DNA of 47,296 bases from a virus (Duplodnaviria > Heunggongvirae > Uroviricota > Caudoviricetes). Position numbers: made by a program. Below are positions 30,001 through 33,000 of the stretch, piece after piece; positions within the stretch are counted from its first letter, which is position 1; each line of letters begins with the position of its first letter. The stretch lies in the IMG/VR virus record IMGVR_UViG_2879765931_000007. One strand, given 5' to 3'.

Positions 30001-33000
30001 CGCCTCAGTGGTCCTGACGTCTTTGACCTGTAGTTGGGCTATTTCATTGAGTCTCGCCCCAGTGATAGCAGCCAAGGCGGTAACATAATAATGATACGGC
30101 TTACCAGAGGTCTTCTGAGAGTATGCCTTAGCTGCGACCAGTAGTTGCCCCACCTGCTCCGTAGAGAAGGCGTTACGGGCCCCTGAGGCTTTACGCTGAG
30201 GGACTTTAAGCTCCAGACCCTCAGTCATGTTCTTTTTAATCAAGTCATTGCGCACAGCCCACCTAAAGACAGCAGCCATCTTAATAAGATACTTGTTGTT
30301 GATGGTAACGACATCCAGACAATCTGTCTTATCTTCACGGCTCAACAGGTCAGCAAGTGGGACATCCTTGAAGCGCTGCTTACGGTTCCTAGGTAACTGC
30401 TGGAGCACATCACGGACCCTAAGCATGTCAGCCCTGTTAGCGTCTGCATTGAGACCCAGATGGTCGAATATTTCGATTAACGCAGCGTGTGACGCCTTGT
30501 TTTCCCTTAAGGTTGCAGGCTTCCAGTTCTGATAGTTCTCCGCTTCGTATTGCTCAAAGAGGCTCGCTATGGTAATGCTAGGCGTAACTTCTGGTTTTAC
30601 TTCTGGAGCATTAACAGATAGGGACACAGAGTCTGCTTGGTTATCTTGCCTATCAATATCATTAAAAAGATCGACGTAATCTATCAGAGGCTGACTGTCT
30701 CCCGCTTCGATACGCCTCATACAGGCTTTTAGCACCTTCAGGGCCTCATTGATGTAACGATGCTGGTCAATGCTTAGCGGCTCACTAGCCAGAGCATCGG
30801 TAAGGCTCTCACCAAGTTCTCCGTATTGGTCCCGGTAGATATCCCTCATGTCAGGCTCAAAGAGATCTGAACGGCCCATAGACAGTTCACACTCAGCGAT
30901 GTCCTTAAGGTGTTCCCTCATTTCCTCGTAGGTAGCGTTGGGTCTGTCTGCGTGTATTGCCTTGAGTGCTGCCTTTATGTGCCTTGAGTAAGCCATAGCG
31001 GTGCGTCTATCCTTGGTCCGTAATGATATTGAGGTCATTCTATCTGAAGTGGCACACTGAATTTGGCCACCTGAACAGAGGTGATATGCTCACCTCAGAA
31101 CAACACAGGTGCTCCAATGAAAAAAGAAATTTTAGCGCAGAGTTTAAACGCGAATCCGCTCAACTGGTTGTTGACCAGAAATACACGGTGGCAGATGCCG
31201 CCAAAGCTATGGATGTTGGCCTTTCCACAATGACAAGATGGGTCAAACAACTGCGTGATGAGCGTCAGGGCAAAACACCAAAAGCCTCCCCCATTACCCC
31301 GGAACAAATTGAAATCCGTGAGCTCAGGAAAAAGCTACAACGCATTGAAATGGAGAATGAAATATTAAAAAAGGCTACCGCGCTCTTGATGTCAGACTCC
31401 CTGAACAGTTCTCGATAATCGGGAAACTCAGAGCGCATTATCCTGTGGTCACACTCTGCCATGTGTTCGGGGTTCATCGCAGCAGCTACAGATACTGGAA
31501 AAACCGTCCTGAAAAACCAGACGGCAGACGGGCTGTATTACGCAGTCAGGTACTTGAGCTACATGGCATCAGCCACGGTTCGGCCGGAGCAAGAAGCATC
31601 GCCACAATGGCAACCCGGAGAGGCTACCAGATGGGACGCTGGCTTGCTGGCAGGCTCATGAAAGAGCTGGGGCTGGTCAGCTGTCAGCAGCCGACTCACC
31701 GGTATAAACGTGGTGGTCATGAACATGTTGCTATCCCTAACTACCTTGAAAGGCAGTTCGCCGTGACCGAGCCAAATCAGGTGTGGTGCGGTGATGTGAC
31801 CTATATCTGGACGGGTAAGCGCTGGGCGTACCTCGCCGTTGTTCTCGACCTGTTCGCAAGAAAACCAGTGGGCTGGGCCATGTCGTTCTCGCCGGACAGC
31901 AGGCTCACCATGAAAGCGCTGGAAATGGCATGGGAAACCCGTGGTAAGCCCGGCGGGGTGATGTTCCACAGCGATCAGGGCAGTCATTATACGAGCAGGC
32001 AGTTCCGGCAGTTATTGTGGCGATACCAGATCAGACAGAGTATGAGCCGGCGCGGAAACTGCTGGGATAACAGCCCAATGGAACGCTTCTTCAGGAGTCT
32101 GAAGAACGAATGGATGCCGGTGGTGGGTTACGTAAGCTTCAGCGAGGCAGCTCACGCCATAACGGACTATATCGTTGGATATTACAGCGCACTAAGACCG
32201 CACGAATATAACGGTGGGTTACCCCCAAACGAATCGGAAAATCGATACTGGAAAAACTCTAACTCGGTGGCCAGTTTTTGTTGACCACTTCAATCATTGT
32301 TTGATTGTCTGACCCTAAGACGGAAGTAGTAGACGCCGTTACGCTGGTAGAGATAGTAGACTGCTGGAAGTTTGTGACTACTGGATAGCTGAATCATATG
32401 TCTGTATGCCCTGAGAGGGTTACACAGTGGGTTACAGTAAGTAACTCTGCAAGGAGGCTTAAAGCCGTATCCCTTAGGATTCAGTAGGTTGGAGTACTTT
32501 AAGAAAGGTCATGGAGCGGGCAGCGGGAATCGAACCCGCATCATCAGCTTGGAAGGCTGAGGTAATAGCCATTATACGATGCCCGCATATGGTGCCGACT
32601 ACCGGAATCGAACTGGTGACCTACTGATTACAAGTCAGTTGCTCTGCCTGCTGAGCTAAGTCGGCGCTGGCCCACCACCGAGGACTCGAACCTCGCACCG
32701 TCAACTTAGAAGGTTGATGCTCTATCCGGATGAGCTAGTGGTGGTTGGTGGCCCTTGCTGGACTTGAACCAGCGACCTGGCGATTATGAGTCGCTCGCTC
32801 TGACCAACTGAGCTAAAGGGCCGGAGGCAGAATAATAACCATATGTCATCACATCTGCAAACTCATCTGACCACCAGCGCGTTTAACGCCCTGTGCCATT
32901 TTTCAGGCACAAAAAAACCCGCATAAAGCGGGTTCTTTCAAGTGTCCATGTCTGCTATTCGCCTCGCGATACAGCTTTGCGAAGCTTACCGGAATTGAAG

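Follow-up and report, generated by a model that had tools for sequence, protein, structure and literature searches.

Four tRNA genes and their lineages

We analysed a stretch of 47,296 nucleotides (nt), IMG/VR record IMGVR_UViG_2879765931_000007 (hereafter the window), with respect to a cassette of four transfer RNA (tRNA) genes and the integrase gene that follows it. The window is a chromosome segment of the Shigella/enteroinvasive Escherichia coli type, and it carries CssrB, an ipaH gene and 14 copies of four types of insertion sequence (IS). ARAGORN detected four tRNA genes in the whole window and no others, all on the minus strand. They are numbered here as slots 1 to 4 in the order of transcription:

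32746..32822, minus strand: slot 1, tRNA with anticodon CAU (Met/CAU in ARAGORN), consistent with the Ile2 (lysidine) type, ileZ/ileX lineage; 70.5 bits
32668..32744, minus strand: slot 2, tRNA-Arg(UCU), argN lineage, with a C1-G72 pair and G73; 56.4 bits
32590..32665, minus strand: slot 3, tRNA-Thr(UGU), copy of host thrU, 74/76 (97.4%) identical to K-12 thrU; 69.8 bits
32512..32586, minus strand: slot 4, tRNA-Gly(UCC), last in the cassette, 75/75 identical to host glyT; 64.9 bits

The bit scores refer to Rfam model RF00005, which all four genes passed (56.4-70.5 bits against a gathering score of 29 bits). An earlier note on this DNA had proposed four minus-strand tRNAs separated by 1-3 nt; ARAGORN and Rfam agreed exactly with its positions and anticodons (32512-32822), and the spacers measured 1, 2 and 3 nt. 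The CCA end is encoded in all four genes.

Comparison with host and phage genes revealed two kinds of ancestry. The slot 1 gene was identical at 74/77 positions (96%) to ileZ of Shiga toxin (Stx) phages and at 69/77 (90%) to K-12 ileX. Its acceptor stem (5′ GGCCCTT, 3′ AAGGGCC) forms the pairs C4-G69 and C5-G68, which we take to be determinants for TilS, and RefSeq (PGAP) calls the identical gene of E. coli VL40 a tRNA-Ile. The ileX-like body, the CAU anticodon and the RefSeq label are together consistent with an Ile2/lysidine tRNA. Slot 2, with the ends 5′ CCACCAC...GTGGTGG-G-CCA, was 64/77 (83%) identical to Stx argN, whose anticodon is UCG, 73% identical to host argU and 60% to argO; its identity to the Lys-UUU homologues of PhiR47_1 and EPSSH018 was 84-86%. 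The C1-G72 pair that had been singled out as unusual is indeed present in this tRNA-Arg, but it is shared by the argN lineage as a whole and not peculiar to this copy. Slot 3 departs from K-12 thrU at two positions, both in the D-loop (CAGTAGGTAGAGC to CAGCAGGCAGAGC) and nowhere else, as the earlier reading of the D-loop had anticipated. Judged by these identities, the cassette is a chimera in which slots 1 and 2 belong to the phage ileZ/argN lineage and slots 3 and 4 were captured from the host as copies of thrU and glyT.

Because two of the tRNAs are identical or nearly so to host genes (75/75 to glyT, 74/76 to thrU), the reading of the array as a native host operon in its conserved chromosomal context had to be considered. 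However, the host genes are arranged as thrU-tyrU-glyT-thrT-tufB and spaced by 8, 116 and 6 nt; tyrU, thrT and tufB are absent from the window, slots 1 and 2 are of phage lineage, the array has Q-like, ORF6N and integrase genes around it, and every homologous array that we found sits in a prophage or phage. Operon layout, slot lineages and prophage neighbours thus refute a native operon, and we give this reading virtually no credence.

Two slots vary among relatives. The slot 2 lineage, marked by its C1-G72 pair, switches its anticodon among prophages between Arg-UCU, Arg-UCG (Stx argN) and Lys-UUU, and its discriminator base is either G73 or U73 (copies compared: window 32668-32744, L008 2595-2671, L002 6095-6171 and L004 9092-9168). 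This switching is possibly relevant to the evasion of anticodon nucleases. Slot 4 bears the annotation tRNA-Val in E. coli RMDEC364 (L040 1947-2017) and in about six genomes like it; the RMDEC364 gene is a glyT copy whose anticodon has changed from UCC to UAC and whose 3′ end is damaged by the loss of one C and of CCA, so that it is either decaying or repurposed.

Such variation bears on the proposal that the tRNAs act mainly in counter-defence, as spare or nuclease-resistant tRNAs against anticodon nucleases or HEPN RNases, and not as codon supplements. Slot 2 is divergent (C1-G72, 73% to argU) with an anticodon that varies between Arg-UCU, Arg-UCG and Lys-UUU, and the slot 4 anticodon is altered to UAC in some prophages. 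Neutralisation of PARIS by a phage tRNA-Lys is documented (PMC11464382), and RAZR, encoded by sister islands of the one described below, cleaves tRNAs (PMC13017515). On the other hand, tRNA-Gly is glyT itself and tRNA-Thr is nearly thrU, so a nuclease would cleave both just as it does the host copies; in slots 1, 3 and 4 the anticodon loops are the same as those of host tRNAs, and no tRNA-targeting nuclease was identified in the window. We therefore regard counter-defence as an unlikely main role, though one that keeps some weight.

Position of the cassette in prophages and phages

The array is seated in a defective, IS-riddled lambdoid prophage. Upstream of it, on the same strand, lie in order a DUF1367 gene, YbcO, a DUF1133 Q-like gene, the isrK/C4 RNAs and an ORF6N gene, with three IS among them. 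The nearest of these elements are:

36470..37054, minus strand: Q-like antiterminator gene (DUF1133/Phage_antitermQ); Pfam DUF1133 E 1.7e-95, Phage_antitermQ E 3.7e-6
35237-36485: IS3-family element at the 3′ end of the Q-like gene
34907..35108, minus strand: isrK, C4 and c4-a1b1 RNA elements directly downstream of the Q-like gene; Rfam, above gathering score
33541-34804: IS3-family element interrupting the ORF6N gene near its 5′ end
33031..33540, minus strand: ORF6N (antirepressor-like) gene upstream of the cassette; Pfam ORF6N E 5.5e-18

Between Q, with or without ORF6N, and the holin gene, the same cassette occurs in E. coli VL40 and RMDEC364, in many other prophages and in phages vB_EcoS-689R5 and PhiR47_1; in VL40 the ORF6N homologue is uninterrupted. 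In the window, the island described below and IS elements take the place of the holin side. The cassette showed 99.7% identity over 589 nt to that of VL40 and about 94% identity to those of phages vB_EcoS-689R5, vB_EcoM-606R7 and PhiR47_1, and its first two tRNAs matched ileZ-argN of Stx phages with 88% identity over 171 nt (megablast). All homologous arrays found were in prophages or phages. These results bear out the view of a phage-type array, lying in the slot between Q and the lysis genes and homologous to ileZ-argN. The more specific expectation, that the array takes the place of the Stx-phage ileZ-argN-argO cluster, held for the position and for the ileZ and argN homology but not for the third gene: no homologue of argO exists in the cassette, where slot 2 is just 60% identical to argO and slots 3 and 4 are the thrU and glyT copies. 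Its sequence thus identifies the array as a compositional variant of the ileZ-argN-argO type of Q-downstream tRNA cluster.

The array was 100% identical in three sister Shigella-type loci whose flanks carry substitutions and different IS insertions, and it was 99.0% identical to that of RMDEC364, where the upstream flank was 91.3% identical. Conservation above that of the flanks fits continued function. It also bears on the idea that the array is the inert relic of a dead prophage, too young to have decayed and devoid of present function for the host. IS elements have disrupted the Q 3′ end, ORF6N, the integrase and a Rha gene around the array, and damaged slots do occur in relatives, namely a change in the anticodon stem of the VL40 tRNA-Thr and the missing CCA end of slot 4 in RMDEC364. 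In the window, however, all four genes form intact cloverleaves with CCA, the promoter elements are intact, and the sister loci have kept the array unchanged despite flank substitutions and differing IS. An inert relic is accordingly improbable.

Promoter and terminators of the cassette

Inspection of the region ahead of slot 1 revealed a candidate promoter and, further upstream, a terminator-like structure:

32832..32860, minus strand: sigma-70-type promoter of the cassette, -35 TTGCAG (32860-32855), 17-nt spacer, -10 TATTAT (32837-32832), 9 nt before the first tRNA nucleotide
32911..32938, minus strand: intrinsic-terminator-like hairpin with T-run, ending the upstream ORF6N transcription unit, AAAGAACCCGC-TTTAT-GCGGGTTTTTT

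We aligned the upstream regions of six contexts (the window, VL40, EPSSH018, PhiR47_1, 689R5 and an Stx2a phage). In all six, the -35 TTG, the 17-nt spacing and the -10 TTATTAT were invariant (TTGcAn-17-TATTAT), whereas the spacer and the sequence further upstream diverged. Since the elements and their distance have been kept while the surrounding sequence differs, the comparison supports a promoter of the cassette's own, as the earlier note had proposed for the same motif. The hairpin at 32938-32911 with its T-run folded with -22.3 kcal/mol (z = -4.76), a value that 0/200 shuffles equalled; a simple terminator scanner had reported none in 32000-33600 and missed this strong hairpin, which direct folding showed. 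An equivalent hairpin and T-run stands ahead of the cassette in VL40, 689R5, PhiR47_1 and RMDEC364. A terminator shielding the array from an upstream late-region gene had been suggested; the hairpin is well supported, but the gene upstream is the antirepressor-like ORF6N and not a late structural gene. In Stx2a_F349 and RMDEC364 a second terminator directly follows the last tRNA, and the resulting layout of terminator, promoter, tRNAs and terminator makes the cassette a self-contained unit.

Two other promoter assignments were set aside. A TCGGCA-16-TATAAT motif at the Thr/Gly junction (32598-32571) is incidental as an internal promoter, because its TATAAT stems from the glyT D-loop and recurs with the tRNAs. 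The possibility that TTGCAG-17-TATTAT is the Q-dependent late promoter was dropped in view of VL40, which has a stronger promoter, TTGACT-18-TATATT, accompanied by terminators directly after Q, at the isrK position. Since this promoter of the isrK unit is the better candidate for the late promoter, we kept the view that the motif before slot 1 serves the cassette, short of proof.

Codon usage and proposed function

The codons that the four tRNAs are expected to read were counted in four sets of genes (values per 1000 codons):

Window prophage open reading frames (ORFs): ATA 9.2, AGA 8.9, ACA 14.6, GGA 12.7
ipaH: ATA 10.5, AGA 7.0, ACA 15.7, GGA 7.0
20 ordinary K-12 core genes: ATA 3.4, AGA 2.0, ACA 9.5, GGA 7.9
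Ribosomal and elongation factor genes: ATA 0.4, AGA 1.1, ACA 3.6, GGA 2.0

In prophage genes and ipaH, ATA (7-17 per 1000) and AGA (7-12 per 1000) were enriched 3-5-fold. The notion that the array serves rare codons of acquired genes such as ipaH is therefore good for slots 1 and 2 and modest for slots 3 and 4, for which the counts are given with the opposing evidence below; GGA is not raised in ipaH per 1000 codons. The integrase gene of the window (29542-31038) uses AGG at 24 and AGA at 10 per 1000, together 47% of its Arg codons, and ATA accounts for 32% of its Ile codons, so its translation would rely on tRNAs of the kinds encoded in the cassette ahead of it.

We propose that in the lysogen the array is transcribed from its own promoter and that upon induction Q-antiterminated read-through might also contribute. 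Cleavage by host RNases would release the four tRNAs, and the CAU tRNA would become a reader of AUA through the action of host TilS. The extra tRNAs would raise decoding mainly of AUA and AGA/AGG, and modestly that of ACA and GGA. These codons are more frequent in prophage genes and ipaH than in core genes.

The final tRNA-Gly as a probable attachment site

The last tRNA gene of the cassette abuts an integrase island, of which the window retains the left part:

32512..32537, minus strand: attachment (att) core shared by glyT-type and glyU tRNAs, GGGTTCGATTCCC (32537-32525), GCT (32524-32522), GCCCGCTCCA (32521-32512)
32296..32511, minus strand: left arm of the island with the 5′ part of the integrase gene (ATG at 32397); matches the sequence after glyU in 21AR0133 and 2018-05-2CC
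31045..32292, plus strand: IS3-family IS of 1248 bp that splits the integrase after codon 34 (self-comparison)
29542..31044, minus strand: 3′ part of the integrase, a tyrosine recombinase with a Phage_integrase domain; Pfam PF00589 E 4e-18

Homology to island-free prophages and phages (PhiR47_1, 689R5, VL40) ended exactly with the final base of tRNA-Gly, at 32512. What lies beyond, beginning at 32511, was identical or nearly so to the sequence that follows glyU, the gene for tRNA-Gly(CCC), in E. coli 21AR0133 and 2018-05-2CC. PhiR47_1 represents the exact empty site, with its breakpoint at the 3′ end of tRNA-Gly. The integrase start codon lies 115 nt past the CCA of tRNA-Gly on the same strand, and removal of the IS with its 3-bp duplication restored an ORF of 534 amino acids (aa). 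At the aa level, the rebuilt integrase was 95% identical to its counterpart in the 21AR0133 glyU island, with values of 84% for 2018-05-2CC and 74% for EPSSH018, and the gene is unbroken at the same locus in the IMG/VR sequences L013, L014 and L017.

Among 19 loci of Enterobacterales species representatives, at least 13 had a member of this integrase family about 115-140 nt downstream of tRNA-Gly(CCC), a position that marks glyU as the canonical target of the family; several of the remaining loci were tandem-island junctions or noisy assemblies of the same glyU site. The literature also recognises glyU as an island insertion site. The direct repeat at glyU islands is the 23-nt 3′ end of the tRNA, and within the att core a variable triplet reads GCT in glyT and TTC in glyU. 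A direct repeat of the core bounds complete islands in L004, L016, L007, L006, L021, L029 and L035. Two complete islands lie inside the phage cassette itself: one of 6.3 kb in EPSSH018 (L004; att cores at 9308 and 15664) and one of 8.9 kb, including two IS, in IMG/VR L016 (7865 and 16776). The phage holin region follows in both, and the L016 prophage backbone is 99.7% identical to that of the window. These comparisons of empty and occupied sites, together with the att repeats of the sister loci, support the earlier suggestion that the array is the target of the adjacent integrase, and they point to tRNA-Gly as the gene concerned.

Because tRNA-Gly(UCC) shares the T-loop and 3′-end core with glyU, it would serve as an alternative bacterial attachment site (attB) for glyU-type integrase islands of roughly 4-7 kb. 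The existence of at least two integrase subtypes (74% aa identity) and of two forms of the cassette, with either Arg or Lys in slot 2, indicates that the site has been used more than once. As the island replaces the usual downstream terminator of the cassette, transcripts of the cassette can run into the integrase gene.

Several occupied sites carry a hybrid tRNA-Gly, with a glyT body (UCC) joined to a glyU-type 3′ end, CCCTTCGCCCGCTCCA (L004 9250-9324, L016 7807-7881, L018 7812-7886). From their sequence, these hybrids are scars left by a crossover in the T-loop part of the core when the island integrated; they have C50-U64 and A7-C66 mismatches, and their function may be impaired. In L022, L025, L026 and L034 a partial att-like repeat (e.g. 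GTTCTATTCCCTTCACCCGCTCCA) lies about 130 nt upstream of the integrase with no full tRNA, indicating tandem island arrays at glyU, and in L007 a second, different integrase directly follows the right attachment site (attR) of the first island.

Could the integrase have come to lie beside the array through IS-mediated or homologous rearrangement and not through site-specific integration into tRNA-Gly? The window is heavily rearranged by IS, it has no attR, and its tRNA-Gly bears no glyU-type scar. Yet tRNA-Gly and island meet at the CCA end with single-base precision and no IS between them, and glyT and glyU share 13 + 10 nt, too little for RecA-dependent exchange. Moreover, both att repeats are present in L004 and L016, for which a corresponding empty site exists, and at three other junctions the crossover lies at a different point inside the same core. 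These data make rearrangement very improbable.

All in all, we consider it probable, with good confidence, that the array is a modular tRNA cassette of lambdoid prophages, placed between the Q-like region and the lysis genes, whose final tRNA-Gly is an alternative attB for glyU-type islands. A number of observations weigh against this interpretation. At the promoter, TTGCAG-17-TATTAT matches the consensus at 9/12 positions, no better than shuffle expectation. The enrichment of ACA and GGA is small, 1.3-1.8-fold relative to ordinary core genes. Expression, processing and modification of the array are deduced from its sequence, and with a defective prophage any benefit to the lytic programme is moot in this strain. 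As to integration, searches of the window for attR (26-mer with ≤3 mismatches, exact 10-mer, degenerate 17-mer with ≤2 mismatches) returned nothing beyond tRNA-Gly itself except one chance-level match inside ORF6N; the second core is missing because the right end of the island was lost at an IS1, and integration here is consequently read from the left junction (attL) and the sister loci. Unlike the other occupied sites, the window has a pure glyT tRNA-Gly without a glyU-type scar, which calls for an extra assumption, either a phage attachment site (attP) variant with GCT or later gene conversion against host glyT. Finally, 373 of 5426 complete E. coli genomes carry the integrase family and the junction of array and island occurs in EPSSH018 alone; with 1 of 5426 genomes, use of the site is rare. 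Among the same 5426 genomes, no island with this flank was found at host glyT.

T7-type promoters and other cargo of the island

Beyond the integrase gene, the island remnant contains the following features:

29431..29453, minus strand: perfect T7 class III promoter TAATACGACTCACTATAGGGAGA, 23/23 to consensus (+1 G at 29436)
28901..29236, minus strand: AT-rich and short tandem repeat block (47-nt x2.8, 12/24-nt x6, 10-nt x5)
28494..28658, minus strand: 5′ fragment of a Rha-family regulator gene, cut by IS1 (27726-28493); Pfam Phage_pRha E 6e-10

The promoter lies about 90 nt past the integrase stop codon, is directed away from the integrase and leads into the AT-rich and short tandem repeat block, which is about 350 nt long. 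Together with its flanks it was identical over 26-27 nt to T7 phi13, phi6.5, phi10 and phiOR. The same perfect T7 promoter was present in 1-3 copies in sister loci and E. coli glyU islands, at these positions in relatives:

L006: 10698, 10817
L007: 10665
L013: 3663
L014: 5588/5709/5829
L017: 9694/9815/9935
L021: 8292

In L021, an island of Klebsiella pneumoniae, the T7-type promoter is accompanied by a K11-type promoter, AATTAGGGCACACTATAGGGAGA, at 8359-8381, a sequence that matched 143 Klebsiella T7-like phages at several sites each. Near-consensus variants occur in islands of Rouxiella, Edaphovirga and Lonsdalea, and in 91 of 5426 E. coli genomes the T7-promoter region is present but unannotated.

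Local alignment of the repeats (29250-29090) against both strands of the whole T7 genome gave the best matches at the primary origin (5851-6150, just after phi1.1B; score 39) and in the phiOL region (301-600; score 38), with a maximum of 33 in 30 shuffles. This suggests that the repeat block may be a T7-type replication origin. Downstream, the Rha gene is cut at 28493/28494 and the right end of the island is absent from the window. Intact islands have the order integrase, often PD-T7-4/RAZR, promoters and repeats, Rha/Ant-like gene, small ORF, DUF6971, a protein of about 400 aa and attR. Sequence searches of Pfam, NCBIfam, PADLOC, PHROGs and PDB returned nothing informative for the 373-402 aa protein, DUF6971 or the small ORFs. 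Full-length PD-T7-4/RAZR homologues (DUF4145 HEPN RNase) overlap the 3′ end of the integrase gene in L004 (11059-11712) and L021 (7624-8256), with PADLOC E values of 3e-97 and 8e-99; tblastn detected none in the island of the window.

The islands contain cis elements that would be specific to a helper phage, namely the T7 class III promoter in 1-3 copies, the K11-type promoter in Klebsiella and the origin-like repeats, and this content strongly suggests that the island would respond to RNA polymerase of the T7 group. On a further-reaching view, the island would be transcribed and perhaps replicated only upon arrival of the phage polymerase. Its promoters would fit the local T7-group phage, T7-type in E. 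coli/Shigella and T7 plus K11 in Klebsiella, and a prophage tRNA used as attB would give it a second vehicle, the temperate phage. That the phage-borne glyT copy is in this way a landing pad, by which a T7-responsive island (a satellite or infection-triggered replicon of virulent T7-like phages) nests in a temperate prophage, is a tentative and somewhat doubtful possibility. Deposited phage genomes did not contain the island and gave just promoter-sized matches to T7-group phages. In the literature searched, whose coverage is incomplete and which is therefore weak evidence, no description matched islands or satellites with T7 promoters.

The cassette offers a clean example of assembly, with phage-lineage tRNAs and captured host tRNAs joined behind a conserved promoter, and of how a prophage gains a new attachment site when it captures a tRNA gene of the host. 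An island that targets glyU can thereby ride in a temperate phage, at the stx position of Stx phages, an easy way for mobile elements to become nested and for the late operon to acquire new cargo. The tRNA array alone is of modest interest; what is added is the phage-borne copy of a host tRNA as a glyU-island site and the T7-promoter content of the island. Native, host-matched T7-group promoters and T7-origin-like repeats adjoin a validated anti-T7 gene in such islands. If the island responds to T7 RNA polymerase, it would represent either a new sensing logic in defence or the first satellite of T7-like phages.

Other features of the window

The IS copies, whose positions are not the same in the sister loci L016 and L017, comprise:

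490-1753, 2040-3303, 12955-14218, 26777-27725, 33541-34804, 45597-46860: 1264-bp IS3-family element, six copies (one truncated)
14470-15717, 31045-32292, 35237-36485: 1248-bp IS3-family element, three copies
18554-19321, 27726-28493, 37899-38666: IS1, three copies
9288-10621, 43813-45146: 1334-bp elements, two copies

An ALIL pseudoknot, the frameshift element of the IS3 family, was located at 17237-17353. The module of isrK and C4 antisense RNA occurs twice, at 8501-8689 on the plus strand and at 34907-35108 on the minus strand, the second also with c4-a1b1 targets. Each module adjoins an ORF6N-type gene and resembles the immI antirepressor control unit of P1, and the units follow closely on Q in two prophage remnants that run in opposite directions. 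At 3898-5924, the ipaH gene (LRR and NEL E3 ligase, 571 aa) has the small RNA CssrB directly upstream on the opposite strand; beside ipaH, a repeat of 712 bp (6134-6845) recurs with 98% identity at 24103-24814. The early region of the prophage also includes a hok/sok-type toxin-antitoxin (Rfam sok) at 39157-39481.

Comparison with known systems

The tRNA cassette itself is ordinary, since tRNAs after Q are common in lambdoid phages and identical arrays are annotated in RefSeq E. coli. SfI, Sf6, ST64T, PS3 and phage 21 have tRNA genes directly downstream of Q, among them a tRNA-Thr(UGU) that has been ascribed to the bias of phages for ACA codons (PMC3636060); SfI carries Asn-GUU and Thr-UGU, in contrast to the four tRNAs found here. 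The ileZ-argN-argO cluster of Stx phages of the 933W/Stx2a type shares with the cassette its place downstream of Q, the tight spacing, a terminator after the last tRNA, a TTGCAA-17-TATTAT motif 9-10 nt before the first tRNA and the C1-G72 pair of argN. It differs in that the window has thrU and glyT copies for argO and UCU instead of UCG in slot 2, and in that stx follows there whereas an integrase island follows here. Our search for literature on ileZ, argN and argO returned no paper, a weak result given its incomplete coverage. Slots 3 and 4 derive their sequence from the host thrU-tyrU-glyT-thrT-tufB operon (97.4% and 100% identity), but the cassette is without tyrU, thrT and tufB and stands in a prophage. 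Its Thr and Gly genes are 3 nt apart; in the host, thrU and glyT have tyrU and 124 nt of spacers between them.

As for the island, RAZR is described as an anti-T7 HEPN RNase whose homologues were noted to overlap the integrase gene (PMC9519451, PMC13017515). The sister islands L004 and L021 conform to this arrangement of PD-T7-4/RAZR beside the integrase, unlike the island of the window, which is without RAZR; native T7/K11 promoters and downstream origin-like repeats find no mention in the two papers. Conceptually closest to the island, as a putative satellite, are the PICMI elements (PMC10803314). They too are integrase elements of roughly 6 kb with few genes and no capsid genes, linked to virulent phages; unlike it, they belong to Vibrionaceae, integrate beside fis and code for AlpA and a primase, with no T7-type promoter strategy described. 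The glyU islands of Enterobacterales have the same integrase family, left arm, att core and types of cargo (Rha-like regulator, T7 promoters) as the island studied here. They differ in their target, which in the window is a prophage-borne tRNA-Gly(UCC) of the glyT type, and with such a target the island comes to be nested in another mobile element, at the place where Stx phages carry stx.

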